A DNA stretch of 64,000 nt from a virus. The position numbers and the translations under genes were made by a program. The stretch lies in the IMG/VR virus record IMGVR_UViG_3300045988_183163. One strand, 5' to 3'. Under the pieces are notes generated by a model. That model ran no database searches and had not been told where the DNA came from. It saw only the letters and a program-made list of their open reading frames with translations. Below, one piece after another: positions 8,161 to 30,260 of the stretch (position 1 is its first letter; each line of letters begins with the position of its first letter).

Positions 8161-8565
8161 TCAACGAGCGTTTGTGAATACGGCAACAACCAGCTCCTCG
8201 TAGTCTTCGATGGCACAGTAGATGTCAGCGAAACCATAGGCGTGGCCACGGTCGTAGGCTTTTTGCCAGAGGATGGTTGCAGCCTTTTTGGAAATGCTGC
8301 GTTTCGTTTCGGCTTTGATGTCTTCCTGAATTTGAAGTTCGATAGCTTCCGAGATGTGTTCGATTTCTGCATTCTGCGCCTTCTTCAGCCGAGAGCATTC
8401 CGCATCCCAGGCTTTCTGTCGGCGAACGACCTCTTCCCTGTTCCAGCGCACCGATTTCTCTTCGTCGATGATTTCACCGTCTTTCGGGCGTTTAGAGTTG
8501 GGCCTTGTTGGTCTTTTCCAAGCAGTTTCGAGTCGGTTGCCAAGATTTGTCCATACGTTATCCAT
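8161..8565 (-). CDS. hypothetical protein
   Basis: Start at MDNVWTNLG with RBS AAGGAG; charged, helical. Confidence 0.5.
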   Translation of the reverse strand: MDNVWTNLGNRLETAWKRPTRPNSKRPKDGEIIDEEKSVRWNREEVVRRQKAWDAECSRLKKAQNAEIEHISEAIELQIQEDIKAETKRSISKKAATILWQKAYDRGHAYGFADIYCAIEDYEELVVAVFTNAR

Positions 8566-8583
8566 AGTTAAACTCCTTTTTTG

Positions 8584-8632
8584 TACGCAAAAAGGCGAAC
8601 CTCCCGGTGTGTGAAGTCCGCCTAAAAGCGAA
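8584..8632 (-). terminator. intrinsic terminator inside a promoter-proximal leader
   Basis: Minus-strand RNA forms the hairpin GGCGGACUUCACACACCGGGAGGUUCGCC followed by UUUUUGCG. It lies between promoter 8691..8718 and gene 8161..8565. Confidence 0.55.
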
Positions 8633-8635
8633 GTG

Positions 8636-8698
8636 TGAATTGTACGAGCACACAGTGTGCTTAGTAGATGGTATCTATCGTACAAGCTAAATTATACG
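8636..8698 (-). promoter_or_regulatory. conserved about 63-nt leader element (TTGTACGAtAGATAccATCTACT..GCACA....GTGCTCGTACAATTC), copy A
   Basis: It starts about 6 nt after the -10 box. It contains the inverted repeats TTGTACGA/TCGTACAA and two inner hairpins. A near-identical copy lies at 19182..19251. Confidence 0.5.
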
Positions 8699-8718
8699 GG
8701 TCTCGCACGAAAGCGCAA
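8691..8718 (-). promoter_or_regulatory. conserved promoter family copy (TTGCGC-N16-TATAAT)
   Basis: Minus strand reads TTGCGCtttcGTGCGAGacccgTATAAT. Confidence 0.5.
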
Positions 8719-9579: not shown

Positions 9580-9662
9580 AGATTTTCCTCCTGGCAACAA
9601 TAAAAAAGGCAGGCCCTCGGTTGGAAGGTCTGCCAAAAAACAGTTTGAGAATTGCAAAAAGG

Positions 9663-11389: not shown

Positions 11390-11417
11390 ATTTTATGAGA
11401 CTCGCACATTTGCGCAA
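11390..11417 (-). promoter_or_regulatory. conserved promoter family copy (TTGCGC-N16-TAAAAT)
   Basis: Minus strand reads TTGCGCaaatGTGCGAGtctcaTAAAAT. Confidence 0.45.
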
Positions 11418-11539: not shown

Positions 11540-12802
11540 TCACCTTCTTTCTGTAATATAATTTGTTGCGACTTCTAGTAGCCGCATTTTTTTGTAGGAC
11601 GCGCTATTAGAAACAACAGTACCGTCCAATTTTTTAAGAGCGAAGTATCCAGAAGTTCGTCTGCCTGTGATAAAGCATTCTGAGCCATTATAGGATACTT
11701 TGTCCCAAAGACGATAACCCTTTACGGTGTACGGAGCTTGATTAGCCTTGCGTATACCACCTTTTAGGATAGTTGCTTTGTGCAGCTGTCTGTTATGGTG
11801 GCGTATAGCCTTCGTGTAGTAGCAAGTATCGCAAGGTATGGCCAATGGGTTCTTGCTAATGCAGCGTGCATCGTTGGTGTGACTTTTAGGAATACTATGC
11901 TTCTCACGCAAGTACTTGGTTATGTAGCCATAAGTCCCTTGTACCGGAATCTTCAGCTCTTTAAGCAAGCGTTCCATAAGTGTCTTACGCATAACCCCCA
12001 TAAAAGCTGCATCTTTGAGAGACCTGCCACGTTTTTTGCCGTCAAGTGTTACTTTTCCAGCGTGTAGAGCTTTATGGCAAGCTGTGCATAGCGTGATAAG
12101 GTTGTTTGGCGCATTGCCACCTGTTCTACGGGTCTCGATATGATGCACATGCAGCTTTACAGCTTTTGTTTTTGTTGGATGCGCACCGCAGCATTGGCAC
12201 GTATAATTGTCACGCTTTAACACATACTGGCGTACATTGTACTCATCGTACATTTCACCAAGCTGATAGTCTGTGCCTACCGGCAGAGGTTTACCTTCCA
12301 GCATTGCTTTTAGACGTTGTGTGTCAAACTCTGCTGTTTCTACTCTGACGAACGTAACAGGCAAAATACGACATACTCGCTTGATAAGCGTAATGTGTTC
12401 TTGAATCTTGACCTCCACTGATGGCGCTAACCAGCCCTTATGCTTGCTATGCACTCTGTTGTTGAAACGCGGCGCACGGTAACGGGTTTTGCGGTTTCGC
12501 CTGCTGCGTCTGAAAGCACGGCGTGCAGAAAGCAAATCAACCACATCATTGCGTGGAGTTGCCTCTTCGCAATAGAGTTCGTACTTTTCAGTGGCAGCAG
12601 ATATGCCAATATGTTTGCTGCCTGCATCTACGCCCAAAGTAATAGGTTGTTTGTATCCTGTACTTCCATACAGGAGCTTGATTGTAAACGGTGTGCGTTT
12701 TACAACGCATGCTTTCTTCTGCTTTAACAATAAGCGAGCCTTGCGTGGAGAGCACGGCATCAAAGGTTCGCCGTGTTTGTTAAGCACATACACATATTGC
12801 AT
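11540..12802 (-). CDS. iscB: IscB, OMEGA RNA-guided nuclease (PLMP, split RuvC, HNH domains)
   Basis: PLMP motif HGEPLMPCSPRKARLL; RuvC-I LGVDAGSKHIG; Arg-rich bridge helix RRAFRRSRRNRKTRYR; RuvC-II VRVETAEFD; HNH CQCCG...HHIE...NLITLCTACH; RuvC-III SHTNDARC. 420 aa; RBS AAGGAG. Confidence 0.8.
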   Translation of the reverse strand: MQYVYVLNKHGEPLMPCSPRKARLLLKQKKACVVKRTPFTIKLLYGSTGYKQPITLGVDAGSKHIGISAATEKYELYCEEATPRNDVVDLLSARRAFRRSRRNRKTRYRAPRFNNRVHSKHKGWLAPSVEVKIQEHITLIKRVCRILPVTFVRVETAEFDTQRLKAMLEGKPLPVGTDYQLGEMYDEYNVRQYVLKRDNYTCQCCGAHPTKTKAVKLHVHHIETRRTGGNAPNNLITLCTACHKALHAGKVTLDGKKRGRSLKDAAFMGVMRKTLMERLLKELKIPVQGTYGYITKYLREKHSIPKSHTNDARCISKNPLAIPCDTCYYTKAIRHHNRQLHKATILKGGIRKANQAPYTVKGYRLWDKVSYNGSECFITGRRTSGYFALKKLDGTVVSNSASYKKMRLLEVATNYITERR

Positions 12803-13091
12803 GATACCATGCTCCTTTCTATTTGTGTGACAGCTAATGATAAGCTGTCCTCTCCTCCGAAGAGGAGTTACTTCCGAAGAAGCTAATCCTTCCCCAAAGT
12901 TATAAGCGGTTTAATGCAGCCACACCTGTTGTCTTTACCTCAGATTTCTTTGATGTGTTGCCTTAGAGCGTGCAGTTAGGATTAACGCCGCACGGTAACT
13001 ATCTATTCGCTTATAACGGAGTGCTCGAAGCACTTAGGGTAGTCAACATATCCTTTCGGACATTTCTAAAGCGTAGACTCGCTGATGCAAG
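12803..13091 (-). ncRNA. candidate omega-RNA of IscB (located 5' of iscB up to the LE hairpin)
   Basis: 290 nt with no ORF between the LE hairpin and the iscB start. It contains several GC-rich stems (for example GGAAGTAACTCCTCTTCGGAGGAG). The position matches the known IscB omega-RNA layout. Confidence 0.4.
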
Positions 13092-13111
13092 CCCGCGACT
13101 TTAGTCGTGGG

Positions 13112-13597
13112 TTATTGACGGGAATCAGCTTTCCTGAAATCAGAAAGTTGATTCTCAGTGGAACACTGCACGAAAGGAATTCCCGTGCGCGAATTCACAA
13201 AAACGTCTGTGGTAGCAAACGCATTGCCAAAACTCATGTCACAGAAAACGACGTGAGAACTTTCGTCACCAGATGCACGGGGCGCAAAGCTGGTACATGC
13301 AAACCAATCCAATTCATCCTGCCCCTGTTCATCATAAAGATAAATGACGGGAGCCGGAATGTTGGGCGTCGGCATAGCCAGTGAGCCAACCTGCATTTCA
13401 TTGACACAGAGGTCAATGGGCGGGTTCCCGTTCTGATAATCCCATTTGGGGTATGACTGAGCCCTGATGGTGGTGTCGCCATCATCTACCTCGATGCCAA
13501 GAGCAGCGATATCGAATGGAATACCGAGCTTTTCCTTGATTTCTTCCGGGGTGAAAGTTAGGAGCTTACCGTGTTCGCCTTGGATGTAGAGTCTCAT
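13112..13597 (-). CDS. hypothetical protein
   Basis: 161-aa ORF. Confidence 0.5.
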   Translation of the reverse strand: MRLYIQGEHGKLLTFTPEEIKEKLGIPFDIAALGIEVDDGDTTIRAQSYPKWDYQNGNPPIDLCVNEMQVGSLAMPTPNIPAPVIYLYDEQGQDELDWFACTSFAPRASGDESSHVVFCDMSFGNAFATTDVFVNSRTGIPFVQCSTENQLSDFRKADSRQ

Positions 13598-14192: not shown

Positions 14193-14432
14193 TCAAATCA
14201 TGCTATCAGACAATTTGTCGATAGCTGCCGTGATGGCTTCGTTTTCCATCTGAGCAATACGCTCAAACAAATGAGACCAGTCGATGGCATCATAGACACG
14301 CTTGACAAACGCATCATAGGTGCCACCGGCCTTCATCATTTCAATTTCAGATTCATAGCAGCCGGGCTCCTCAAGTATGAACTTGATATCGTCGGTTGGG
14401 TTGATTTGTATTGTTGCTTCGTACTCATTCAT
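14193..14432 (-). CDS. hypothetical protein
   Basis: Start at MNEYEATIQ (RBS GAAAGGAAATAATC). The upstream ATG sits inside the terminator hairpin. Confidence 0.45.
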   Translation of the reverse strand: MNEYEATIQINPTDDIKFILEEPGCYESEIEMMKAGGTYDAFVKRVYDAIDWSHLFERIAQMENEAITAAIDKLSDSMI

Positions 14433-14455: not shown

Positions 14456-14492
14456 ACGCAAAAAGGCGAACCACCCAAATGGGAAGTTCGCC
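14456..14492 (-). terminator. intrinsic terminator in a promoter-proximal leader
   Basis: Hairpin GGCGAACUUCCCAUUUGGGUGGUUCGCC followed by UUUUUGCG on the minus strand; it lies downstream of promoter 14562..14590. Confidence 0.55.
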
Positions 14493-14561
14493 TAAAGCGC
14501 ATTGTTAAGTGTGCGAAGGGCAGGGTGCCTTTTCGATAACTGTTATCTATCGTACATTTTT

Positions 14562-14590
14562 GATTATAGGCCGTTCGCATAAATCCGCAA
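14562..14590 (-). promoter_or_regulatory. conserved promoter family copy (TTGCGG-N16-TATAAT), followed by a diverged ATGTACGATAGATAAC element
   Basis: Minus strand reads TTGCGGatttATGCGAACggccTATAATcaaaaATGTACGATAGATAAC. Confidence 0.5.
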
Positions 14591-16533: not shown

Positions 16534-17061
16534 TTATGTGTTGTTCTCGACAAAGTCTTCGCATTCCTCGCTGGTCAAAACCACGCCGAAATAGGCAACA
16601 CGCTTGACGGTGGTTTCCCACACGCGAACGGTGCGTGCCATTGGCTGAACGACCCAGGAATGACAGCGCCAGAGCCCGTCTTCGGAAAGAGCATAGCCCG
16701 TTGCAATAAAGCACCGGTCTTTGTTTTTATACCAAAGCCGTGCAGAATTGTAATGGCACTGGCAATCCTGGCCTTTCCTCATATAGCTGCTGCCATAAAA
16801 GAACCGGCCGCGTTCAAGGATTTTTGGTGCATCTTCATCGAACATCGTCATGCAGACTTCATCCCCGCCAAATGTGAGGATTTTGTCATGCAGCTTCTTC
16901 ATAGCATCGAGCGTTTGAGTATCGAAACCAGAAGAGGTGTTGTAAATCTGGCTTTTGGTAAGCCGCATTTTCCAATCCTCGTTCATTGGGTTCCAATGAA
17001 TCGGCGCAGGCATCCGGTTTGCGGTGAGAATGGGGTGTTTAGAACTGTTCCAGCCTTTCAT
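16534..17061 (-). CDS. hypothetical protein
   Basis: 175-aa ORF; the antisense ORF 16531..17118 is rejected because of the strand block. Confidence 0.45.
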   Translation of the reverse strand: MKGWNSSKHPILTANRMPAPIHWNPMNEDWKMRLTKSQIYNTSSGFDTQTLDAMKKLHDKILTFGGDEVCMTMFDEDAPKILERGRFFYGSSYMRKGQDCQCHYNSARLWYKNKDRCFIATGYALSEDGLWRCHSWVVQPMARTVRVWETTVKRVAYFGVVLTSEECEDFVENNT

Positions 17062-17642
17062 TACAATTTCTCCCTGATAGAACGCAGACAGCTCAGGATT
17101 TTTGCATACAAACGGTAACGATTTTCGCCGCTCGGTACAAAGTCACCAAGCTTTTTGGAAATGAGAAGTTTATCAAATGCCTCCATAATATCAAAGACGG
17201 TGAACAGCTTGTATTGTGCATTTATATGATTCACACGGAACTCGACATCTTCGACAAGATGCCAATATTCCATGCCATACAACATCGCGCCGCTTTCGTT
17301 TGCTTTTCGGTCTTGCTCTTCGTCTGCATCGTCACACACAATATAGACACCGTTTTCGTCGAGATAGTTCTCGAAGACGTCGCAGATATCGGAGGCAACA
17401 GAACGGATATCGGAATTTGCCTTCACCTCAGGTTCAGGCTGGGCGGCTTCAACTTTGTACTCGATACTGTCGTGACGAAGTGACTCTTCGATGCCATCAA
17501 AAACGATGTCCGCGCAGTCGTTATCATCCCGACACGCTTCGAAAATGTTTTTGACGAATTCGATTGCCTCTTTGGAATCGGAGCTTCCCTCAACAGAGAA
17601 CTCCAAAGGAACCAAGGCAACAACTTTGTATTTATTCTTCAT
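17061..17642 (-). CDS. hypothetical acidic protein
   Basis: 193-aa ORF. Confidence 0.5.
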   Translation of the reverse strand: MKNKYKVVALVPLEFSVEGSSDSKEAIEFVKNIFEACRDDNDCADIVFDGIEESLRHDSIEYKVEAAQPEPEVKANSDIRSVASDICDVFENYLDENGVYIVCDDADEEQDRKANESGAMLYGMEYWHLVEDVEFRVNHINAQYKLFTVFDIMEAFDKLLISKKLGDFVPSGENRYRLYAKILSCLRSIREKL

Positions 17643-17852
17643 GATTTTTTCTCCTTAGTTTAACAGGATGCCGCAGCATTTGTTCAAGGCAAGTGCGCTT
17701 GCAGCGAGAGCAGCAACCTTCTCAAAGGTAATGCTCTCCGCAATTGCACAGACGCTCATAACAATGAGCAGAACAGCTGCCACAGCAGATACTATTACTA
17801 TCTGACTTTTGATGCCGGTTTTCATGAGCTTTTTCTCTTTCTGTTTATGCCC

Positions 17853-18188
17853 TTATCGGAGCATATCAATGATTTTTCCAACCAACTCATCATTGGTCAC
17901 GAACTGATTACGTCCTTTTGCGCCGAGCGATACAGAGGAGTAATCTTTCATACTGGCGGCATAGCGAACCATGTTCTTGTCAGACAAGAGCTGATAGCAA
18001 CTCTTTTCAGTGCTGACGTAAACGCACTTATTGTTGAGAACGTTCTGAATGTGGCCAGAGCAGCCAACACGCTTACCGTTGATGATGATGTTGTGTAGGT
18101 TATGGGTTAGCATAAGGTCTTTGCTTTCGGTTTCTTTTACCTTTAACTGGTTCAAGAGTTTTCGGGACAGATAAACGGTTGCTTTCAT
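17853..18188 (-). CDS. hypothetical protein
   Basis: 111-aa ORF. Confidence 0.4.
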   Translation of the reverse strand: MKATVYLSRKLLNQLKVKETESKDLMLTHNLHNIIINGKRVGCSGHIQNVLNNKCVYVSTEKSCYQLLSDKNMVRYAASMKDYSSVSLGAKGRNQFVTNDELVGKIIDMLR

Positions 18189-18205
18189 TGTGACTTCCTC
18201 CTAAT

Positions 18206-19033
18206 TCAAATGAAGTATTTGTAAGCGGCAGTTAAGCGTTTGCGGTACAGGTCTAACGTGGTCAGCCCTCCTGCATAGACTTTGCGGGAAGAGATTATCA
18301 CGTTGGTTCCTGCTTCCATATGGGAGAAGAACATCGAAAGGCAATCTTCCAGGCTGTCGCTTGTAGTGAGAGTTTCGTACACCGGATATGAGTATTTGGC
18401 GGCTTTGCTGTATGTGCTATTGAGCTCATACACGAAGAACATCACCTGTCCCGTAACGGTGTTGGGGTCATAGCCATTGCCATAACACCAGTTGAAAAGG
18501 TCTGTCTTTCGGCTATAAGTCCATTGCAGGAGTCCATAGCCGCCATCCGAAGGGTTTTCGGCCGAGGCTTTAAGACCGCTTTCCATCGACATGCAGCCCA
18601 TCACTGCGGCAGTACCGGCCTTTGAAAGGCCAGCGGACCGCAGAGCTGTGTAGATTTCAAGCTCATTGTCGTTGAGATTATCTGGAATTGTTTCGGGTTT
18701 CGGTTCAGCTTCTTCGATGGCTGCTTCTGCGGTCTCAATCCGTGGTTCCGGTTCTGCAGCATCGGAAGATTCGACCTCAGCAGTTGTAATTTCCTCCTGT
18801 GCTTCTTCGGAAGTTTCCGTTATCGGGAACGCTTTATCGAGCTCATTCACCGTTTCAATGGGAGTGGAAAAAGCGATAGGTTCGGTTTTGGGAGCTATGT
18901 TTTCCTCTGCGTGTGCAGGAACAGAAAGCATAAAACCCATGCAGGCGATGATGGTAAAAATACACATCACCGCGACGACAACCAGGACATGCTTGTTCCG
19001 AAAAATGCTGTTATTATTCTTTTCGACTTTCAT
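18206..19033 (-). CDS. membrane-anchored lysozyme-like peptidoglycan hydrolase (phage tail lysozyme-type domain)
   Basis: N-terminal TM helix, acidic linker, and a C-terminal region AVMGCMSMESG...GYGLLQWTYSRK typical of phage lysozyme-2 type domains. Confidence 0.45.
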   Translation of the reverse strand: MKVEKNNNSIFRNKHVLVVVAVMCIFTIIACMGFMLSVPAHAEENIAPKTEPIAFSTPIETVNELDKAFPITETSEEAQEEITTAEVESSDAAEPEPRIETAEAAIEEAEPKPETIPDNLNDNELEIYTALRSAGLSKAGTAAVMGCMSMESGLKASAENPSDGGYGLLQWTYSRKTDLFNWCYGNGYDPNTVTGQVMFFVYELNSTYSKAAKYSYPVYETLTTSDSLEDCLSMFFSHMEAGTNVIISSRKVYAGGLTTLDLYRKRLTAAYKYFI

Positions 19034-19123
19034 TTTGTGACTCCTTTTTTGTGTCTTTTCCTTGTAGCGGAAGATTGTGATTTGAGATTTGTGGTTTGTT
19101 TTGAATTCCTCCTTTTTCTGTAA

Positions 19124-19172
19124 ACAAAAAAAGGCAGGCCCATCATGAAGATGAGTCTGCCTTGAATGAGAA
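19124..19172 (-). terminator. intrinsic terminator in a promoter-proximal leader
   Basis: Hairpin AGGCAGACUCAUCUUCAUGAUGGGCCUGCCU followed by UUUUUUUG on the minus strand; it sits between the leader element and gene 18206..19033. Confidence 0.55.
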
Positions 19173-19181
19173 CAGAATTAT

Positions 19182-19251
19182 GAATTGTACGAGCACGCGG
19201 TGTGCAAAGTAGATGTTATCTGTCGTACAACTTTAATACTATGGAATTCGC
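19182..19251 (-). promoter_or_regulatory. conserved leader element copy B (TTGTACGAcAGATAacATCTACT..GCACA....GTGCTCGTACAATTC)
   Basis: About 85 percent identical to 8636..8698, with compensatory changes in the inner stems. Confidence 0.5.
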
Positions 19252-19263
19252 AAGGATGTGCAA
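19236..19263 (-). promoter_or_regulatory. conserved promoter family copy (TTGCAC-N16-TAGTAT)
   Basis: Minus strand reads TTGCACatccTTGCGAATTCcaTAGTAT. Confidence 0.45.
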
Positions 19264-19285
19264 GAGCTTTTGATGTGCTTCTTTT

Positions 19286-19825
19286 TCAGGCTTCGTTAAG
19301 CCATTTCTGAGTGATATCCATGATTTGATTCTGAAATTCCGGGTCCGGCAAGGTTTTGCTGTCTGCCCAAATTGAGTTACGGACGATTGGGTAATCGTAC
19401 ACGACGCCGTCAACGATATAGGGCCAAAGAACAACTTCACCACCCACAAGCCAGAGCTTTTGGACTTTGACAGGCTTCTCATATCTTGTGAGCCAGCATT
19501 CACTGGTCACGACAGAATCCGCCACATATTTCTGTGTTTCTTCCTCAGTTAAGAGATTCGGGTCTTCGTCCTTGATGTTGTACATTCGGACAATGAACGG
19601 TAACGGCATGTCCTTGGAGTATTTTTTGTTCTGACGCAGCTCAGCGAGCAGGAATTTTGAGACAAAATGCGCAATGCCGATGCTGGTCAGGCAGTCGTCA
19701 AGGGTATGCCCAAGACAAATTCTTGGGATTTCCTGGTCCTCCCCTTTCATCCGATTCGTTGGTATCTGCGGAACAACATCGTCCGGCAGGCATCCGGTGT
19801 CTGCCATGATATGATAAAGAATCAT
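19286..19825 (-). CDS. hypothetical protein
   Basis: Start at MILYHIMADTG with RBS AGGAGGAAACATC. Confidence 0.5.
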   Translation of the reverse strand: MILYHIMADTGCLPDDVVPQIPTNRMKGEDQEIPRICLGHTLDDCLTSIGIAHFVSKFLLAELRQNKKYSKDMPLPFIVRMYNIKDEDPNLLTEEETQKYVADSVVTSECWLTRYEKPVKVQKLWLVGGEVVLWPYIVDGVVYDYPIVRNSIWADSKTLPDPEFQNQIMDITQKWLNEA

Positions 19826-19978
19826 TGATGTTTCCTCCTGAAATAAAAAAAATAGCAGGCCCTCAAGAATCGAGAGTCTGCGTTGTTCGCACGATGAATC
19901 ATTCATTCGAGTGTGTTTTTATCGTGTAGTTGATATTTTGTTTGGCTTGTACACGTAGCCAGCCCAAACAGACATCGT

Positions 19979-20461
19979 TCAGAACGTCTTGTTATCAGGA
20001 ATCCGCAGATACATCCAGGACTGTGGTGCTCGCTTAACGCCGAGCTCTCGCAGCGACATATCCATAGATTGGACATCAGAAACGTTCCAGCAATAAAGAG
20101 TGCCGGACTTATTGCCGTATGCAATCAGCTCATTTGCGGTAAGGCAGCTGTCCTTCACGAATTGAGCGGTCTTTTCGGTCACTTCCGTGCCAATAGCATA
20201 TGCCGGAAGCTCACGCAGGCAATCGAGTGTATTGATGGCACGGCAAACAAATGCGGCAGTCACTTTTCCAGCACCACCGTTAGCTTTGGTTTCGTAGCAA
20301 AATACTACAAAAGGATAGCTAATTTCCCACGGCATAGTTTTTCGGACCTCAACAGTCTTTTCTCCGCTCAGAATTTTTTCAAGCCATTGCTTCTTGATGC
20401 TGAGAAGAACGGCTTTATTCGAGTTGATTTCAAGGGTTTTATTGATATTTGAATTAAGCAT
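19979..20461 (-). CDS. ASCH-domain-like protein
   Basis: 160 aa; the N-terminus (LLSIKKQWLEKILSGEKTVEVRK) resembles the ASCH beta-barrel. Confidence 0.4.
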   Translation of the reverse strand: MLNSNINKTLEINSNKAVLLSIKKQWLEKILSGEKTVEVRKTMPWEISYPFVVFCYETKANGGAGKVTAAFVCRAINTLDCLRELPAYAIGTEVTEKTAQFVKDSCLTANELIAYGNKSGTLYCWNVSDVQSMDMSLRELGVKRAPQSWMYLRIPDNKTF

Positions 20462-20515
20462 TGTTATGCTCCTTTCACACTTCGGGTATTTTTTATTTTT
20501 GGTGGGATTTCTTAC

Positions 20516-20553
20516 TGACGCAAGCCCACGACTTTAGTCGTGGGTTATTGACT
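20516..20553. repeat. solo IS200/IS605-type subterminal hairpin (LE-like remnant)
   Basis: TGACGCAAGCCCACGACTTTAGTCGTGGGTTATTGAC is nearly identical to the IscB-element LE at 13085..13120. No transposase or nuclease gene is attached. Confidence 0.5.
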
Positions 20554-20566
20554 TGTTTTTGGAGCG

Positions 20567-20809
20567 TCACCATTTATGGAACGGGTTCAAAAGTCCGGGA
20601 CGGTATTCGTTATCGACATACATCTTGATGTCGTTATCGTCCAGGGCATCCAAAATGTTCATCCAGCATTCCGCTTCGACGTGCATCTCGCCGTCCATTT
20701 TCAAGGCCCTGTCGCACTGAACTAAGTCTGCGCGAAAAGAATTCACATAGAAGCAATCTTTTGCGGCAGCTGCGAACCTGGTAAAGCTGTTCTTGGTATT
20801 TGTGGTCAT
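20567..20809 (-). CDS. hypothetical protein; paralog of 4918..5187
   Basis: Start at MTTNTKNSF (RBS GAAAGGATG...); C-terminus ...EAECWMNILDALDDNDIKMYVDNEYRPGLLNPF. Confidence 0.45.
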   Translation of the reverse strand: MTTNTKNSFTRFAAAAKDCFYVNSFRADLVQCDRALKMDGEMHVEAECWMNILDALDDNDIKMYVDNEYRPGLLNPFHKW

Positions 20810-20963
20810 AGTATTCATCCTTTCTGAAATATTTTTGTTTCTAATCAGTACATACAAAAAAAGAAGCAGGCCCTCAAAAGAGAGTCTGCTTACTTGTGCA
20901 TGACAGATTGTTAATTTAATGTTCAATTAGGAGGTAAGTGATGGTATCTGTTATGCAATTATT

Positions 20964-20991
20964 ATTTTAGGCGGTTCGCACATTTGTGCAA
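20964..20991 (-). promoter_or_regulatory. conserved promoter family copy (TTGCAC-N16-TAAAAT)
   Basis: Minus strand reads TTGCACaaatGTGCGAACcgccTAAAAT. Confidence 0.45.
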
Positions 20992-21000
20992 GTGGCTTTT

Positions 21001-23831: not shown

Positions 23832-24203
23832 ATGGACGCGACAATGCAGACGGTTCTCCGGCTCCATGAGCAAGGTATACCTAGAAGAACCATTGCCAAA
23901 CGTGCAGGCATCTCATTGCAGAAAGTGCGCAAAATACTGATTACGGCCGGGGCCTGGTCAGATGAAACATCAGAAAAAATCGGGAAGCTGCGTGCGAACG
24001 GTATGTCAGTTCCTGAAATTGCAGAAGAATTGGGTGTAAAAACCAATACTGTTTGGAGCTATTTGCCATACAGCAAAGGCATGTATAATCAAGAATATCC
24101 GACCATTAACGCCATTCGAGTCCGAAATTCGAAGCGAAAAGCAAAAGAAAAAGCCCTCACCTGCACGGATACCGCACAGAATGAGGGCAGTGGCGCTTGC
24201 TGA
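23832..24203 (+). CDS. helix-turn-helix DNA-binding protein (two HTH-like segments)
   Basis: IAKRAGISLQKVRKIL and MSVPEIAEELGVKTNTVWSYL. It is the only plus-strand gene in the first 50 kb. Confidence 0.45.
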   Translation: MDATMQTVLRLHEQGIPRRTIAKRAGISLQKVRKILITAGAWSDETSEKIGKLRANGMSVPEIAEELGVKTNTVWSYLPYSKGMYNQEYPTINAIRVRNSKRKAKEKALTCTDTAQNEGSGAC

Positions 24204-24278
24204 AGGATTCGAACCTTCGGACAGTCTCCCATCGTCGGTTTTCTGGACCGATTTCATCAACCACTCGAACAAGCAAGC
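24191..24278 (-). tRNA. type-II tRNA, Ser-like, with non-canonical anticodon loop CCAGAAA (C33; anticodon reads AGA)
   Basis: Acceptor GCUUGCU/AGCAAGC, G73, CCA encoded, T arm GAAGG-UUCGAAU-CCUUC, long variable arm, anticodon stem UCGGU/ACCGA. Confidence 0.5.
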
Positions 24279-24282
24279 AGAT

Positions 24283-24371
24283 GGCGCAGAGGGTGAGATT
24301 CGAACTCACATGCCGCGATTTCCGCGACGGCAGCTTAGCAAGCTGCTGCCCTACCGTTAGGCGACCTCTGC
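24283..24371 (-). tRNA. tRNA-Ser(GCU)
   Basis: Acceptor GCAGAGG, D stem 3 bp, anticodon arm GCAGC-UUGCUAA-GCUGC, long variable arm, T arm GUGAG-UUCGAAU-CUCAC, G73, CCA. Confidence 0.75.
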
Positions 24372-24403
24372 ATAATGCACCTTTTAACGTAGGTGCGACG
24401 TAG

Positions 24404-24478
24404 TGACCCCTGGCAGACTCGAACTGCCGACTTCAGCTTGAGAGGCTGGCGACTTGGACCAACTTGTCGAAGGGGCCT
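24404..24478 (-). tRNA. tRNA-Glu(CUC)
   Basis: Overall E. coli tRNA-Glu-like architecture; anticodon loop CUCUCAA; T arm GGCAG-UUCGAGU-CUGCC; A73; no CCA encoded. Confidence 0.65.
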
Positions 24479-24481
24479 TAT

Positions 24482-24565
24482 GGTGTGCCGGGCTGGATTC
24501 GAACCAGCGAACCGAAACGGAGCGGTTTTACAGACCGCCTGCTTTAACCTCTTGCATACCGACAC
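24482..24565 (-). tRNA. tRNA-Tyr(GUA)
   Basis: Type II; anticodon arm GCGGU-CUGUAAA-ACCGC; long variable arm; T arm GCUGG-UUCGAAU-CCAGC; A73; CCA. Confidence 0.75.
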
Positions 24566-24568
24566 ATA

Positions 24569-24644
24569 TGGTGCTCCCGGCCGGAATCGAACCAGCGACA
24601 CGCGGTTCTTCAGACCGCTGCTCTACCAACTGAGCTACAGAAGC
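24569..24644 (-). tRNA. tRNA-Phe(GAA)
   Basis: D arm GCUC-AGUUGGUAG-AGC; anticodon arm GCGGU-CUGAAGA-ACCGC; T loop UUCGAUU; A73; CCA. Confidence 0.8.
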
Positions 24645-24645
24645 A

Positions 24646-24725
24646 TGGTGACCCGTGTGGGTTTCGAACCCACAATAACCTCCGCCGTGAAAGGGCGGCA
24701 ACTCTACCAATTCGTCCAACGGGCC
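24646..24725 (-). tRNA. tRNA-Glu(UUC)
   Basis: Anticodon arm CCGCC-CUUUCAC-GGCGG, the same as E. coli tRNA-Glu; T arm GUGGG-UUCGAAA-CCCAC; G73; CCA. Confidence 0.65.
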
Positions 24726-24754
24726 ATATATAGCCGCAATCCTGCGGCGAGGGT

Positions 24755-24976
24755 TTATGCGATGACAAGGATGTCATCTATCTTGGTATCCAGCATCGCT
24801 GCCAATATCACAAGGTTGTCGATGGTGGGGAGCGCTGTTCCAGCTTGCCATTTGGCAACTGCCTGCGTGGATACGCCGAGTGTATCTGCCACATCTTTCA
24901 CCTTGATACCTGCTGCCTTTCGCAGTGTCTTAATGTTGGCACCAGTTTTCTGAATATCAATAGTAGGAACGTTCAT
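24755..24976 (-). CDS. XRE-family helix-turn-helix transcriptional regulator (Cro/CI-type)
   Basis: 73 aa; IKTLRKAAGIKVKDVADTLGVSTQAVAKWQAG matches the HTH_3 pattern. Confidence 0.7.
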   Translation of the reverse strand: MNVPTIDIQKTGANIKTLRKAAGIKVKDVADTLGVSTQAVAKWQAGTALPTIDNLVILAAMLDTKIDDILVIA

Positions 24977-25344
24977 TTTTTCTTGCTGCCTTTCTGTATT
25001 GCAGGCAACAAAAAAGCTGCCTGCCGAAATCTCGACAAGCAGCTATGACATGCAGTTATCGCTTAGAAGACGCACCGCATCTGTACATGGTCTGTTTTTG
25101 CCTGTCGAGGAGTATGAGAAATAAAACTGCGTTCATAAGAGCTGAACTCAGATTCATAACTATACTCATACGACATTACATTAACAGTGTTGCACAGCAT
25201 TTTGGGGTATCTCCTTTCGTTTCGTTCTGATATTATTATAGCATGTTTTTGCACATTTGCAATCAACTTGTGGTTTAGTTTTTTGGTCTGTATACTCTCC
25301 AAAACAAAAAGCCGCCTCTTATGTGAGGACGGCTTTTCTTATTG

Positions 25345-25420
25345 TGGCAGGGGTAACACGACTCGAACATGCAACACGCGGTTTTGGAGACCGCTGCTCT
25401 ACCACTTGAGCTACACCCCT
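25345..25420 (-). tRNA. tRNA-Trp(CCA)
   Basis: Anticodon arm GCGGU-CUCCAAA-ACCGC; D arm GCUC-AAGUGGUAG-AGC; G73; CCA. Confidence 0.75.
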
Positions 25421-25427
25421 ATATAGA

Positions 25428-25492
25428 TACTCCAGTTGGGAGTCGAACCCAGAGTAAAACGGGACTTAAAGCCGCCGCGTTTGCCAGTTTCG
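25428..25492 (-). tRNA. aberrant tRNA-like sequence (acceptor, D and T arms fold; no regular anticodon arm; loop region contains UUUAAGU)
   Basis: Acceptor GCUCCAG/CUGGAGU (G1-U72), D arm GCG-AAACUGGCAAA-CGC, T arm CUGGG-UUCGACU-CCCAA, A73. The anticodon region GGCGGCUUUAAGUCCCGUU cannot form a 5-bp stem. Confidence 0.35.
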
Positions 25493-25505
25493 CCACTGGA
25501 GCATA

Positions 25506-25581
25506 TGGCGGGTTGTACAGGGTTTGAACCTGCGGCCCACGGATTAACGGTCCGTTGCTCTACCAGCTGAGCTAACAACCC
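25506..25581 (-). tRNA. tRNA-Asn(GUU) with C33 (loop CCGUUAA)
   Basis: Anticodon arm ACGGA-CCGUUAA-UCCGU (E. coli Asn has CUGUUAA); T arm GCAGG-UUCAAAC-CCUGU; G73; CCA. Confidence 0.65.
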
Positions 25582-25610
25582 ATAAATGGCAGTTGTTGTA
25601 CTGCCGGACA

Positions 25611-25688
25611 TGGTACTCCCCGAGGGATTCGAACCCTCAAAACGGTGCGGTTTGAGCGCACTGTGTCTGCCAATTTCACCAGAGGAGC
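25611..25688 (-). tRNA. type-I tRNA with anticodon CAA (Leu-like decoding, A73, short variable loop)
   Basis: Anticodon arm GUGCG-CUCAAAC-CGCAC; T arm GAGGG-UUCGAAU-CCCUC; acceptor GCUCCUC/GGGGAGU; CCA. Confidence 0.5.
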
Positions 25689-25691
25689 TTA

Positions 25692-25767
25692 TGGCGGGCG
25701 TAGCAGGATTTGAACCTGCGACAAACGGATTAACGGTCCGCCGCTCTGCCTACTGAGCTATACACCC
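25692..25767 (-). tRNA. tRNA-Asn(GUU) with C33, second copy
   Basis: Anticodon arm GCGGA-CCGUUAA-UCCGU; T arm GCAGG-UUCAAAU-CCUGC; G73; CCA. Confidence 0.65.
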
Positions 25768-25798
25768 ACAAAAGTGGCAGATAATGCTCTGCCGGGCA

Positions 25799-25874
25799 TG
25801 GTGCGCTCGCGGGAAATCGAATCCCGAACACCCCGATTAAAAGTCGGGTACTCTACCGATTGAGTTACGAGCAC
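25799..25874 (-). tRNA. tRNA-Lys(UUU)
   Basis: Anticodon arm CCCGA-CUUUUAA-UCGGG; T arm CGGGA-UUCGAUU-UCCCG; A73; CCA. Confidence 0.75.
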
Positions 25875-26138
25875 TTGTCGCGCATCTTCCGTGCCATGCT
25901 TATGGGAACACAGCTTTGAGGAATCTCACTTCCGATGCGCATGAAAGTGAGCGTTGGCCGAGAATGGTCGAGTCGAACAACCGTTGTCAGGGTGAATCCT
26001 CCCACGACTAAAGTCGCGGGCTTCCCCTCTTTTAAGGAGAGGAACTTGCTAACGAAATGGTACAGCAATCCCTCAGCAAGTAAGTCCCGAAGAACAAACT
26101 CACCGCAAGAAAGCTAATTGTCACAGTTAGCCTACATC

Positions 26139-27080
26139 TTACGCTGCCTGTGTACTGAGTTTTTTGAGCTCAGGATACAGAACTTTAAGCGTGGCAAGTG
26201 TAACTTGGATTCTACGCTCAACATCCGGAACATTAGCCGAAAACTGAGACCTTACCATCGCTGGCAAGGGTTTTAGCAACTCTCTGACAAAGTAGCGAGC
26301 GCCAATATTGTAGCTCGCACTTAGGTCGCAGTTGTATTGTTTGCCGCTTGCAAACGTTGCAAGGGCACGATTGGTTTCATCACGCTCAAGAGCACCACTG
26401 CCATCAAAGGCGAGTTTGCTTGTGCCCCAAGCGCAGATACGCGAAATCCGGATACCACAGCGGTGTGCCTTCTGTGTCACATAATCCTGTATGGAATTAC
26501 GTTTCCACATTGTCAGCTTTTGTGCTTTACTGCCGCCGTGCTTTTTGCCTGTAAATGACAAATGTTCAAAAACAATCACATCTACAGAATAAAGCACAGC
26601 AAATTCAGTAATCGCAGCAGCAACCTTTTTCGCTATATCGTTATTCAAGGCTTTGGCGTAACGCCACATAGCTGCGGCGCTGTTGGAACCGTGCTCCCTT
26701 TGCTTACGCTTGATACGGTTAAGCACATGATACAGATGGTCTTTTTCACTCGGAAAATTGATAAATTTTCTTGCAAGGACAGTTCCATCGGCAGTCATGA
26801 TGCTGCACACGGCGTCAGTATTGAGACCAAGGTCTACAGCGCAGATACGCCTGTCTTGAATTTCAGTTTCAGAGAGTTCTACCTTCTCCACGAAAGCGAA
26901 GCGGAGAAAATATTTTCCGTACTTCTTTTCGAGGGAGGGAGCGCTCTTTTCGCAATGTGACCAGTATTTCGTGATGTATTTGACATCGGTGGCACGCATT
27001 GCAATAGGAATCCAAACCCAGTCATTGTTTTTATACAGCTTCAGATAGCACTGGTTTGGTTTGTTGCTTTCCTCATACAT
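26139..27080 (-). pseudogene. tnpB: TnpB-like (RuvC-I ICAVDLGLN, RuvC-II VIVFEHL, RuvC-III NCDLSASYNIGARY), lacking about 100 N-terminal residues and the CxxC...CxxC zinc finger
   Basis: 313-aa ORF. A 400-nt gap to tnpA has no ORF of 60 aa or more, while the frame stays open upstream of the first ATG. The zinc-finger cysteines are replaced (CAWGTSKLAFDGS). Confidence 0.5.
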
Positions 27081-27488
27081 AACGGTCTTATAAAAAGCCG
27101 GGAAGCAAAATCTATCGCATTGAAGTTTTGGCTCCCTGTCAACCTTGCCGTTTGCTTCCCAGTTCTTATGGCTACTGTAGTAGCTGCTTACAGAGCCGAG
27201 TGCTGCTTGAATAGCCGCTCTGCGCAGGTAACTAGGGAACTTATAAAACTTGGCATCGAAATCATATTTAGCAGTGCTGTATTTTGTAGTATGAATTAAC
27301 TTCTCGGCAAAACTCTTTCGAGATTTGGCACCCTCTACTTTTTGAATAGAATCCCATTCTTTGTTAAATCAACCAATCAAGAAAGAAACGGCTTCGCGAT
27401 AAATCTTTATAGTATTGTCGAACATTTTCTGCTTTTTGATTTCCACAGCATAGCTGGAAGTGATTTTCACTGCGAAGCCCCCCTTTCA

Positions 27489-27869
27489 TCAGTTTCTTAT
27501 TTTTTGAGATGCAATGTATTCTTGTACTTGTTTGCGCGTGTTATCACTGACGGTTGCAATAAAGTAGCTTGGGTTCCAAAGATGCCCGCCCCAAAGTTGC
27601 TTCTTCAAGTCCGGATTGGCGATAAAAATAGCTCTTGCACTGTTGCCTTTAAGCACTTTTATCATATCCGGGATAAAATGCTGCGGTGAACACTCCACCA
27701 ACAGGTGAATATGGTCAGGCATGCATTCCATTTCTACAATATTGATTTTTATGGTTTCGGCGGTCTGCTGCAGAGACTCTTTTAGCGATTGTTCCGTTTC
27801 GTTTGTCAAAGCCTGATGCCTTACCGTCTGGCGAATCCTCGAATATACATTATGTATAATAGCATACAC
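27489..27869 (-). CDS. tnpA: IS200/IS605 family Y1 (HuH) transposase TnpA
   Basis: 126 aa; HuH motif MPDHIHLLVE; C-terminal region LKGNSARAIF...GHLWNPSYFIATV with the catalytic Tyr region. Confidence 0.7.
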   Translation of the reverse strand: MYAIIHNVYSRIRQTVRHQALTNETEQSLKESLQQTAETIKINIVEMECMPDHIHLLVECSPQHFIPDMIKVLKGNSARAIFIANPDLKKQLWGGHLWNPSYFIATVSDNTRKQVQEYIASQKIRN

Positions 27870-28486
27870 TTTAATAAGCCTGGCTGGAATTCACTCCAGC
27901 GGCATTAGAGTGACCTGATTCTGATTTTCTGCATCAAAAAAGCACCCATCAGGCGTTGTGCGTCTGACAGGTGCTCATATCGTGCAGAGTATGGAAAACA
28001 ACCGATACTTGGATGATTTTATTCAACCATCACTGCACTATGATTTGCACAAACAGACAACACAAAACAGCTGAAGAGATTCCAATTGCTCCACAGCTTT
28101 TGCAATTTATTCTGTTTGTTCATCATAGCAGCAAACATCGTGCAGTTTTCCTTTCATCAAATTCAGCGTCTTAATTATACAATATGTAAAAGCCAAAGTC
28201 AAGGCTTTTCGTAAAAATAATGGCAGGCCCGTGCTCATTGTTCGACCGGTCTCCAAGCAGCAATCCGCGCTATTGCATTCGAGAACGGTATGTCCTCACA
28301 CGAACACAACTCGCTTAAAGCCTTAGCCATCCTGGACTCATAGTCAGCCAAAGCCAGGTCGATGGGCACCGTGATTGCAGCAGAGTCATCTGGCGTTTCC
28401 AGAACGGGAGTCCTGGTATTTTCACCTGGCATTCCCTCTTGACACCACTCACAAAAACAAAAAGCCGGGAAACCCCGGCAAAAATT

Positions 28487-28575
28487 TGGCGGTCAGAGTG
28501 GGATTCGAACCCACGGACGTTTTTGGCGTCGCTGGTTTTCAAGACCAGTTCCTTAAACCACTCGGACATCTGACC
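28487..28575 (-). tRNA. tRNA-Ser(UGA)
   Basis: Type II; anticodon arm CUGGU-CUUGAAA-ACCAG; T arm GUGGG-UUCGAAU-CCCAC; G73; CCA. Confidence 0.8.
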
Positions 28576-28658
28576 ACAAAAGGATGGGGCGGGACCGAAA
28601 TCCCGCCCCATAGCAAGGAGAAAAAACTATCGATTACCGTTAGTTAGAGGATGGCAAA

Positions 28659-29792
28659 TTAGTGGATGCCCAGGGAAGCGGCATAAGCAGCTTCACGAGC
28701 GGCAACCTGTGCCTGCAGAGCAGCGATGGAAGCGGCATAAGCGGCTTCACGCTTTTCAGCAGCAGCCTGAGCTTCAGAGGTAGAAGCGTACTGGGGCTCG
28801 TTGCCAGCCAGAGTACCAGCATAGCCCTTGACGCCATCAGCGCCCTTAACAGTCAGGACTTCATGACCACAATGGTCACAGACGTAAACGTTACCCTTGC
28901 GGGTCCAGTTGTGATAGCCACAGCTGGTACAGACGGTGTACTCATTGCCCCAGGTGCCATTGGCAATAGCGGCGGCAATTTCACCGTGCTCAGAGACTTC
29001 AACGTTCTTGCGAGGAGCGGTCGGAGTAGTGGTGGTAGTACCGTTGCCCTTGTTGGAGCCGGTAGAAGTGTTGTCCTTACCGGTGTTGTCCTTATCGGGG
29101 GCCACTACGTCGCCCTTGTCATCGGGAGTGGTGGTGCCGTTGTCACCGGTATTGTCACCAGTGTTGTCGTCCTTATCGTCGGGTTTGGTAACATCACCCT
29201 TGTCATCGCCCTTGTTGTCATCCTTGCCGTCGTCGGGAGTGGATGCAGAAGTGGCTTTCAGGGTCAGGACGTTGTCGTGGATGTCGTCGCCCAGGTAGTA
29301 GAACAGGCGGTCATGGTTCAGGCTCTTGCTGGATGCGGTGTAAGTATCACCGGAATCCGTGGTCCAGGCTTCAACACTCTGACCATCAACACTGCCCGGG
29401 AAAGTGGCGGTGTCAGTCTCGGTCAGCACCGTGTTGCCGTCAATCTGGTAGTTGATGGTGATGGAACGCGGATTGCCCTCAGCCGCATAGCAGGAAGTGA
29501 TGCCGTCAGCGGTGAACCACTGGTCAACTGCATCGTACGGCAGAGTGTCGCCGGGATAGTAGTTGTAGGTATACCCGCCATGGCCTTGCAGGGTAATCCA
29601 GTAGCCGTAGTCATACTGACTTGCCGGGAACGTCATAGAGCCGCCCGGAGCCAGGTCCTGGGAAGAACCATTGCTGAAAGAGAAATGGTAGGTGTCACCG
29701 GTGGCTGCGAACGCTGCGACAGGCAGACAAGTTGCCATCATACCGGCTGCTGCAATCCCTGCGATTGCTTTCATGATTTTCTGATTGCTCAT
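28659..29792 (-). CDS. secreted Asp/Gly/Thr-rich protein with a C-terminal zinc-ribbon
   Basis: Signal peptide MSNQKIMKAIAGIAAAGMMATCLPVAAFA; low-complexity DDKGD repeats; CTSCG...CDHCGHEV zinc-ribbon. The antisense 388-aa ORF is rejected. Confidence 0.55.
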   Translation of the reverse strand: MSNQKIMKAIAGIAAAGMMATCLPVAAFAATGDTYHFSFSNGSSQDLAPGGSMTFPASQYDYGYWITLQGHGGYTYNYYPGDTLPYDAVDQWFTADGITSCYAAEGNPRSITINYQIDGNTVLTETDTATFPGSVDGQSVEAWTTDSGDTYTASSKSLNHDRLFYYLGDDIHDNVLTLKATSASTPDDGKDDNKGDDKGDVTKPDDKDDNTGDNTGDNGTTTPDDKGDVVAPDKDNTGKDNTSTGSNKGNGTTTTTPTAPRKNVEVSEHGEIAAAIANGTWGNEYTVCTSCGYHNWTRKGNVYVCDHCGHEVLTVKGADGVKGYAGTLAGNEPQYASTSEAQAAAEKREAAYAASIAALQAQVAAREAAYAASLGIH

Positions 29793-29894
29793 GCTGTGTA
29801 CTCCTTTGTTCTTTTAATTTTTTTATGATTATCTATCTGCATTTATTCAGATACCGATTTAAGGAGAAATCAGCCGCAGCTTTGCTGCGTTGCC

Positions 29895-29935
29895 CACCAT
29901 CCGCCGCGTGGAGGCTTTCTCATGGATGGTTGACG
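29895..29935 (-). promoter_or_regulatory. structured motif copy 1 (stem CCATCC/GGATGG around AGCCTCCACGCGGC, then TGGGCAAC)
   Basis: One of three copies with compensatory stem changes; it lies in the leader of gene 28659..29792. Confidence 0.4.
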
Positions 29936-30230: not shown

Positions 30231-30260
30231 ATGATGGCGGGTCAAGCCCGCCAAATAGCG

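Follow-up and report, generated by a model that had tools for sequence, protein, structure and literature searches.

What does a 46-nt sequence with perfectly inverted ends do directly behind a promoter, and why does it recur within one phage genome? The question is raised by positions 19,124 to 19,263 of the virus record IMGVR_UViG_3300045988_183163 of IMG/VR (64,000 nucleotides, the whole of which is called the window below), a segment that an initial annotation had described as the second full copy of a leader element carrying compensatory mutations. We found that 19124-19263 is almost exactly one complete predicted cis-regulatory cassette of the minus (coding) strand, ordered as promoter, 5 nt, 46-nt element, conserved linker, strong intrinsic terminator, ribosome-binding site (RBS) and gene. 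Our best reading, though tentative, is that a leader RNA at the 5′ end of the transcript would gate read-through of the cassette's own terminator, by an antitermination of the nut or put kind.

Two 46-nt copies with perfect 8-nt inverted ends, hereafter A and B, were found where the annotation had put them (coordinates of all units are given in Table 1). The form TTGTACGA-N30-TCGTACAA occurs exactly twice in the window, at these two places. When up to 3 mismatches were allowed in the arm pattern, 3 window matches were obtained against 0.15 expected, and none of 100 shuffles gave 3. The third, loose match (3949-3994, plus strand) is a TTGCACG...CGTGCAA inverted repeat just upstream of the promoter at 3892-3919; the covariance model described below gives no match there, and it is not a family member. 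All genes local to the two copies lie on the minus strand, on which copy A reads TTGTACGA-TAGATACCATCTA-CTAA-GCACACTGTGTGC-TCGTACAA and copy B TTGTACGA-CAGATAACATCTA-CTTT-GCACACCGCGTGC-TCGTACAA. Both share one predicted three-way-junction fold (the 46-mers alone at −12.9 and −11.4 kcal/mol; with the terminator added, z = −4.2 and −5.6), and the inner hairpins quoted in the annotation proved correct on this strand. The alignment of A and B continues past the limits of the 46-mer, spanning about 140 nt in all, and includes promoter, linker and terminator. Leader element was a fair name, although the promoter 5 nt upstream and the intrinsic terminator 15-25 nt downstream had been missed. Because the promoter ends 5 nt before the element, the latter is expected at the extreme 5′ end of the transcript, which probably starts at about T2/G3 of the element.

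The supposed compensatory mutations are not found between A and B. The two copies are identical at 40 of 46 positions, and no pair is altered on both sides. Four of the six differences (sense-strand positions 9, 15, 24, 25, 32 and 34) are unpaired, with 15 and 32 in loops and 24-25 in the junction. The other two break terminal or loop-closing pairs: position 9 changes a U-A pair of hairpin 1 to C.A, and position 34 an A-U pair of hairpin 2 to A.C. Compensation was seen once homologues were added, this hairpin 2 pair being A-U in the A type, A.C in the B type and G-C in the B variant GCACGCCGCGTGC. The alignment, folding and homologue search that the annotation had proposed thus bear out its structural idea for the family, but not for the A/B pair. 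We also considered an RNA from the plus strand, on which both pair changes would be compatible with G.U; it is ruled out by the family's G.U bias on the minus strand in terminator and hairpin 2, and by the promoter and genes, which are on the minus strand as well.

An exact-arm scan of IMG/VR gave at least 119 loci. A covariance model built from element, linker and terminator then recognised 179 units in 99 of these loci plus the window, 59 of them distinct. A second scan, anchored on promoter and linker only and hence blind to the element, yielded 71 distinct leaders, and 70 of them carry GTACGATAGATA at a fixed position together with a GTAC 3′ arm. All classes share one order: promoter, element, linker, terminator, RBS. 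More than 100 distinct variants were found on related gut-phage contigs, some of which hold 5-8 units within 15 kb, each ahead of 1-3 genes. Overall, units stand before at least 23 unrelated protein families, mostly without known function, and we therefore regard the unit as a general operon leader. Element variants are each linked to one particular downstream gene family, the copies being paralogous within a genome and orthologous between genomes; the same downstream family was also found with two quite different element interiors. An RBS-preceded open reading frame (ORF) begins at most 70 nt from the terminator in 122 of 183 units, and B-type units, whose ORF lies about 95 nt downstream, make up most of the others.

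The family was also sought outside IMG/VR. No match to 17000-21000 was found by blastn among cultured and deposited phages, and the nearest cultured relatives of the helicase are those of Faecalibacterium and Streptococcus phages, at about 51% identity. A pattern scan of a genome collection used a short pattern, and almost all of its 120 matches were due to chance; genuine units were found only in two 'Clostridiales' assemblies of metagenome-assembled genomes, on contigs DYBQ01000001.1 (223,830 bp), DYBQ01000017.1 and QAMJ01000006.1, which are probably binned phage. An orthologous-locus search for distant leaders added no depth, all 80 loci being at least 90% identical at the protein level. 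A full-text literature search for the exact motif returned no paper that matches. The source of the window is probably, to judge from these relatives, a large uncultivated gut phage with a host in the Bacillota.

Pair-by-pair covariation was computed on the 59 distinct sequences. The overall score was 0.256, against 0.154 in shuffles (none of 500 reached 0.256) and about 0.07 with slid partners. Compensatory (double) changes were found in all 5 pairs of hairpin 2 and in 9 of 13 terminator pairs, 97% of the terminator cells being paired. In the sense orientation, G.U outnumbers A.C by 94 to 2 in the terminator and by 37 to 16 in hairpin 2. Since 9 of its 13 pairs are compensated and G.U prevails so strongly, we concluded that the terminator is a real sense-strand RNA signal. 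The core of the closing stem, GUACGA/UCGUAC (6 bp), and hairpin 1 are paired in 98% and 90% of cells respectively, with zero compensatory changes in both. The annotation's view of a conserved secondary structure, as opposed to a random repeat, therefore holds in that hairpin 2 covaries and the closing stem is kept, but it finds no covariation to lean on in the closing stem or hairpin 1. Its outer stem of 8 bp must also be shortened, as the two outermost 'pairs' change only by mismatch (CTG.., TCG.. and ATG.. variants all keep the ..AA partner), which fits a transcript start at about T2/G3.

Among related contigs the 3′ arm is invariant in sequence, and so is the opposite arm. The 5′ strand GTACGAYAGATAnC (GTACGAYAGATA) never varies, even where its pairing partner is altered or lost: it is constant in a third full copy, C, despite a register shift in the 3′ half of hairpin 1 (GAUAA-CAG-UUAUC), in units whose interior consists of unrelated hairpins, and in a partial copy (51192-51275) that has lost the 3′ arm. 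The interior always opens with UAGAUAnC and usually contains two hairpins. The arms remain complementary at separations of about 33-52 nt, around inserts that differ in sequence and shape, which argues for an RNA helix over a double-stranded DNA site. The 46-mer of unit A shows 0 variable sites over 77 collinear orthologues, compared to 6 of 35 in the promoter, 5 of 52 in linker plus terminator and 74 of 405 in the adjacent coding sequence (nucleotide diversity 0.035, and 0.059 at third codon positions). In B-type orthologues, all variation falls in loops or the junction, or repairs A.C to G-C.

The promoter that precedes the element belongs to a larger set. The pattern TTGN8TGCGAR-N5-TANNNT has 20 matches in the 64 kb of the window against 0.68 expected, and its consensus, TTGC-N7-(G)TGCGAA-N5-TAnAAT, is unusual in the conserved TGCGAA inside the spacer. 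With -35-like and -10-like hexamers 16-17 nt apart, enrichment and co-orientation with genes, the motif is evidently, as a predicted signal, a phage-specific promoter of sigma-70 type, and the main promoter type of the region. Their orientation is always that of the genes: 16 matches lie on the minus strand up to about 51 kb and 4 on the plus strand beyond; the strand switch at about 51 kb has the divergent promoters 50857 (minus) and 51159 (plus). Downstream of every match comes either a leader or an RBS with its gene. An RBS comes directly after about half of the 20 promoters, and unrelated leaders with terminators after several others. In the family, the promoter motif was found in 56 of 59 distinct unit contexts, and the spacing from -10 to element is 5 nt in 55 of these 56.

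Other short leaders with an intrinsic terminator ahead of any gene were observed behind the promoters at 3892-3919, 36877-36904 and 40479-40506 (minus strand), and at 57811-57838 and 63681-63708 (plus strand). In the last case no ORF precedes the next promoter (63681-63846), which has the look of a small-RNA gene. Leader terminators thus seem, from these predicted sites, to be in general use in this phage. Directly behind a leaderless promoter, at about 44286-44864 (minus strand), lies a probable transcription activator of Mor/helix-turn-helix (HTH) type. The Pfam Mor match (1.2e-13) belongs to some ORF of the 26-64 kb set, and the assignment to 44286-44864 was made by an HTH-like reading of ...GYSIEELAAKYRLSVRTCYRAL; this ORF is a candidate regulator of the promoter class.

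We next consider the terminator and the way past it. It lies 15-25 nt past the element, with G+C-rich stems of 11-13 bp followed by 5-7 U, so that G+C-rich hairpin, U run on the transcribed strand and compensatory changes are all present, as in an intrinsic terminator. The RBS of the first gene comes about 10-100 nt after it, and no separate promoter serves the downstream genes; for the operon to be expressed, the leader terminator would therefore have to be read through. In several units (copy C, the L005 type and the unit behind promoter 51159), an additional, separate terminator stands upstream of the promoter, and the leader terminator is therefore dedicated to its unit, not merely that of the previous operon. 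Units A and B have no such separate terminator, and their leader terminator also ends the upstream operon.

Read-through by alternative folding was examined as well. The linker AATTCAYAAT, conserved family-wide, is weakly complementary to the 5′ strand of the terminator (5-8 bp, −4 to −9 kcal/mol), with a mean z of −1.35 against shuffled linkers in 39 distinct units. A classical attenuator with alternative structures is not favoured, no strong mutually exclusive structure being found beside this weak pairing, which favours modification of the polymerase over alternative folding. A sigma-dependent promoter-proximal pause, as at lambda PR′ and putL, was also set aside: the -10-like TACGAT at +2 to +7 that it would use is TACGAC in B-type units. 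The linker segment UYCKGC, seen in units A and B and family-wide, complements the base of the terminator 5′ strand (UUCGC:GCGGA, UCUGC:GCAGA) and is similar as well to the 3′ strand of the terminator itself; a weak antiterminator and common ancestry are both conceivable.

The antitermination reading would run as follows. The promoter fires, and the leader RNA would form the closing helix GUACGA/UCGUAC around its variable interior. Recognised as a signal, this RNA would then enable RNA polymerase to resist termination at the leader terminator (processive antitermination). Either a phage or host protein might be recruited to the invariant 5′ strand, closing helix and linker, in the manner of lambda N/nut, or the leader RNA might bind RNA polymerase itself, as does HK022 putL; in a sub-variant, a protein would stabilise the weak pairing between linker and terminator 5′ strand (RAT-like). 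Operons behind the same promoter but without the leader would be expressed immediately, and leader gating would delay or throttle the others, so that as many as 8 operons per 15 kb would be co-regulated. It is doubtful that the 46-nt element goes further and represents a new, very small class of polymerase-acting antiterminator RNA for the Bacillota enzyme, at work at the 5′ end of many operons per genome, each with a gating leader terminator to itself. If it did, it would be either a factor-independent, put-like RNA or the target of a phage protein, as nut is, and abundant gut phages would possess a genome-wide antitermination regulon.

Several points weigh against antitermination. Both the transcription start and the read-through are features that we infer. 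The closing stem and hairpin 1, besides lacking covariation, have G.U to A.C ratios of 3:14 (outer stem) and 11:21 (hairpin 1), and their conservation could be at the DNA level. The partial copy at 51192-51275 has the 5′ motif, linker and terminator without a 3′ arm. The element shows no sequence or model similarity to any Rfam family: with Rfam 15 at gathering thresholds, the whole window gave only tRNAs, two HEARO RNAs and two ribozymes like that of hepatitis delta virus (HDV), and E-value searches with both copies gave only chance matches of at most 16 bits, to be compared with gathering scores of 45-95, and no riboswitch or T-box. Window promoters without this element also precede a leader and terminator, so that the element is not the sole route through a leader terminator. 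Finally, neither a recognisable antiterminator (N, Q, NusG/LoaP-type, ANTAR, CAT/PRD) nor a sigma factor is among the Pfam families listed for window ORFs, the two larger listings covering the first 25 families each.

Some of these observations would suit a DNA-level operator of the stoperator kind, in which the invariant, asymmetric 12-14 bp GTACGAYAGATA at about +1 to +12, with the inverted TCGTAC, is bound by a phage regulator that switches the promoter set off or on, or blocks elongation, RNA foldability being secondary. The 5′ motif is constant in about 70 distinct variants whether or not its partners are kept, and persists in the copy that lacks the 3′ arm; neither covariation nor a sense-strand G.U bias is seen in the closing stem or hairpin 1; the position relative to -10 is fixed; copies are many per genome, in one orientation relative to transcription; and an HTH/Mor-type regulator is encoded in the window. 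We nevertheless consider an operator unlikely, as the variable spacing of the complementary arms would be tolerated by an RNA helix and not by a site for a single protein on double-stranded DNA, the changed 3′ half of hairpin 1 in copy C makes a new palindrome in another register (GATAA-CAG-TTATC), which points to folding, and hairpin 2, inside the arms, covaries. A further candidate is a constitutive 5′ stabiliser, followed by an ordinary, partly leaky insulating terminator and involving no regulated switch. 5′-terminal stem-loops stabilise Bacillus mRNAs, and a flush 5′ helix would here protect from 5′-end-dependent decay (RNase J1/RppH in Bacillota) while the terminator damps upstream read-in. 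That the helix begins at the presumed start, that the interior varies freely provided the helix closes, and that the leader terminators of A and B also close the upstream operon are in keeping with this; yet structure would suffice for a stabiliser, which gives no reason for 12 nt of fixed sequence or for a constant linker, strong terminators between a promoter and its own genes would waste most initiations, and units with terminators on both sides of the promoter exist. On balance we hold it to be decidedly unlikely.

The short RNA might instead be the product itself, the unit being a multi-copy gene for an RNA of about 95-105 nt (sponge, decoy or regulator) and the genes behind it being reached by incidental read-through. 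Promoter, structured RNA and intrinsic terminator are the anatomy of such a gene, near-identical copies are many per genome, and at least one promoter-to-terminator unit of the window (63681-63846) is followed by no ORF before the next promoter. This is improbable in view of the RBS-preceded ORFs that follow so closely in most units, B-type ones included, and that have no promoter of their own; moreover, a search of the window for antisense targets of the single-stranded linker and the 5′ motif found none, and the conserved 5′ segment would be buried in helices. We rate as highly improbable a mobile cassette, conserved mainly by recombination or gene conversion that shuffles gene modules and not by a function of the 46-mer, for which the PeSLs of T4-type phages provide a precedent (PMC2839356, PMC4122927). 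The units are indeed repeated between small genes, mostly of unknown function, and three contexts carry junctions of the expected sort. One (L292) is a chimera in which the promoter and 5′ half are of the A type and the following hairpin 2, linker and terminator of the L283 type, with the crossover inside GTACGATAGATACCATCTAC; in L283, a different upstream module is joined at the unit ahead of the same gene; and in L012/L293 (L293 being L012 5351-5438), a perfect 17-bp hairpin replaces the promoter, flush with the 5′ end of the element and beside a tRNA array. Against this, variants are stably tied to their own downstream family across contigs, orthologous and little shuffled, paralogous copies retain different hairpin 2 sequences, so that no homogenisation has taken place, and rearrangement affects just 3 of the 34 distinct locus A contexts, so few are the junctions that fall within the element or at its edge.

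Other members of the family in the window were searched for with the same covariance model, which brought the total to three full copies (A, B and C) plus three remnants (Table 1). In addition, the palindrome TTGTACAA, in which the two arms are fused, was observed at 50846-50853 (minus strand) and 63714-63721 (plus strand), exactly at the element-start position behind the promoters 50857-50884 and 63681-63708, and at 9655-9657 TTG is fused directly to the CAATTC linker. These fused-arm sites (50846-50853, 63714-63721 and 9602-9657) look like derivatives, the interior of which would have been lost via recombination between the arms.

Table 1. Positions of the leader units, their parts and associated features in the window.
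Feature	Position	Strand	Remarks
Unit B promoter	19236-19263	-	Motif match, aligns with unit A promoter; TTGCAC 19263-19258, spacer motif TGCGAA 19252-19247, -10 TAGTAT 19241-19236
Unit B 46-nt leader element	19185-19230	-	Covariance model 99.3 bits; begins 5 nt past -10; closing stem (U)UGUACGA/UCGUACA(A), hairpin 1 CAGAUAACAUCUA, junction C+UUU, hairpin 2 GCACACCGCGUGC
Unit B linker	19164-19184	-	UUCAUAAUUCUGUUCUCAUUC; AATTCAYAAT family-conserved
Unit B intrinsic terminator	19126-19163	-	Stem-loop 19133-19161, A-U pairs extending, 7-U run 19126-19132
First gene behind unit B	18206-19033	-	275 aa, Phage_lysozyme2 domain
Unit A promoter	8691-8718	-	TTGCGC-5-TGCGAG-5-TATAAT
Unit A 46-nt leader element	8640-8685	-	Covariance model 94.6 bits
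Unit A linker and intrinsic terminator	8589-8639	-	Linker 8625-8639, stem 8594-8622, U run 8589-8593
First gene behind unit A	8161-8571	-	136 aa, phrog_10980, no assigned function
Unit C, diverged full copy	14459-14590	-	Covariance model match 14459-14557, 44.5 bits, E = 5e-8
Unit C promoter	14563-14590	-	
Unit C element	14509-14557	-	AUGUACGAUAGAUAAC...
Unit C linker	14495-14508	-	
Unit C terminator	14464-14494	-	Plus U run
Gene behind unit C	14193-14432		79 aa
Remnant	9602-9657	-	TTG joined to CAATTC linker and terminator; 24.1 bits, model positions 4-43 deleted (element interior missing)
Degenerate relative	20859-20958	-	Behind promoter 20964-20991; closing stem UUGCAUAACAGAUACCAUC...AUCUGUCAUGCA and terminator, 21.3 bits
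Partial copy	51192-51275	+	Behind promoter 51159-51186; 5′ motif TTGTACGACAGATAAT, linker motif and terminator kept, 3′ arm lost
Promoter sites, examples	934-961, 4854-4881, 11390-11417, 40479-40506, 44837-44864	-	
Promoter sites, examples	51159-51186, 63848-63875	+	

The lysozyme-domain product encoded behind unit B has an N-terminus that, read from its translation, looks hydrophobic and signal-like. To judge from its neighbours (DNA ligase, helicase, tRNAs), this gene may lie in a region of early or middle genes, and the operon of unit A runs on to an NAD-dependent DNA ligase (5178-7238).

Features unrelated to the leader were also noted in the window. An IscB-type protein (RRXRR + HNH) is encoded at 11540-12802 (minus strand), with a HEARO/omega RNA just upstream at 12879-13119 (minus strand). 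A second HEARO RNA, at 50197-50457 (minus strand), lies upstream of an SPFH/Band-7/flotillin ORF (48496-50139) and is without IscB. TnpB-like proteins (OrfB_IS605 / Cas12f1-like TNB domain) and an IS200 Y1 transposase (an ORF in 26-64 kb) are present, and we therefore place IS200/IS605 elements inside the phage genome; 26139-27080 (minus strand) has a weak TNB-domain match, and 34399-35508 (minus strand) was assigned as the other TnpB by its N-terminal sequence, not by a per-ORF match. The two HDV-like ribozymes (F. prausnitzii type, 'theta') are at 31659-31739 and 45680-45749 (both minus strand), and the former abuts tRNA-Thr 31579-31654, an arrangement described for gut phages (PMC10879173). 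Seventeen tRNA genes occupy 24191-31654 (minus strand), one of which (30155-30230) has an abnormal anticodon loop.

For the study of temporal gene control in large uncultivated gut phages of Bacillota, the cassette supplies a defined promoter consensus, a compact invariant leader with its terminator, and a clean division of the operons that share this promoter type into direct and leader-gated ones. Should the leader prove to be an antitermination signal, it would be among the smallest known, and the first used at many operons of one genome. The motif can also be used in metagenomes as a marker of operon starts and of a specific gut-phage clade, and the leader is short enough for direct testing.

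How, then, does this predicted leader compare with known systems? In lambda N/nut, a conserved linear sequence and a hairpin in the early leader RNA are followed by terminators that gate the delayed-early genes, and the element resembles it in having a conserved linear sequence and hairpin in a leader, then a terminator that would gate the genes. By inspection of the aligned leaders, no boxA-like CGCUCUUA and no GNRA-like boxB pentaloop were found, and the Pfam families listed for window ORFs, which in the two larger listings are the first 25 each, include none of N, Q or NusG type; the element family also differs by its many more sites per genome. Mycobacteriophage stoperators (the L5 gp71 sites) are short asymmetric motifs, present in many copies and in one orientation in intergenic leaders, and bound by the prophage repressor. 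The invariant motif of the element shares with them its shortness, asymmetry, copy number and single orientation relative to transcription, but stoperators are 13-bp sites without flanking inverted repeats, an adjacent terminator or a fixed distance to -10.

More remote candidates were rejected. A type III toxin-antitoxin system is contradicted by the single element per unit, without tandem repeats, and by the diversity of the downstream families; the two downstream genes tested encode a lysozyme-domain protein and phrog_10980, and not a protein of ToxN/AbiQ type. A miniature inverted-repeat transposable element (MITE) with 8-bp terminal inverted repeats does not agree with the flanks, which differ and show no duplication (ttagc/ttcac in A, taaag/ttcat in B), nor with the fixed position behind -10. 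T-boxes, HutP/TRAP triplet repeats, tRNA-like structures and CRISPR-repeat mimics were dismissed on anatomy.

The put sites come nearer. The putL RNA of HK022 runs from A3 of the PL transcript over some 70 nt, and needs no protein for its action on polymerase (PMC9378689). Like the element, put belongs to a phage leader behind an early promoter, with an RNA that begins at about nucleotide 3, two stem-loops and several copies behind separate promoters, and it acts in cis on downstream terminators (PMC9378689), as is proposed for the element. The differences are that the roughly 70 nt of put form a V of two long stems with a triplex, instead of two short hairpins inside a closing helix within 46 nt, and that put serves a Gram-negative host in 2 copies only, with a first terminator that is not 15-25 nt past the element; there is no apparent sequence similarity. 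The likeness is limited to position and the count of two hairpins; put RNA is defined by binding to the beta′ zinc-binding domain and by factor-independent antitermination. In Gram-positive mobile elements, canT of Tn916 (PMC11658703) and conAn2 of pLS20 (PMC8191782) are cis-acting antiterminator RNAs encoded by the element itself, by which terminators early in operons are overcome, as proposed here. They differ in that each mobile element has one, larger RNA region, that conAn also requires the protein ConAn1, and that no sequence relation is apparent.

The PeSLs of T4-type phages are motifs of about 100 bp with promoter and terminator, repeated between small genes of unknown function (PMC2839356, PMC4122927), and some rearrangement breakpoints fall inside the motif, as in our family. 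The PeSL stem-loop, however, is mostly between -35 and -10 or over -10 and ends upstream transcription, whereas here the start precedes the terminator, with a distinct conserved leader of 46 nt between them; the phages belong to another group and their hosts to another phylum, and shuffling is scarce. Membership was therefore discarded: promoter and repetition fit, and stem-loop position, locus-specific variants and few rearrangements do not. By these comparisons, the predicted element lacks testable defining features of nut, PeSL, type III toxin-antitoxin and MITE alike. In kind, we rate it as belonging with put, nut and PeSL, among the promoter-proximal leader/terminator signals and repeated regulatory cassettes of phages.

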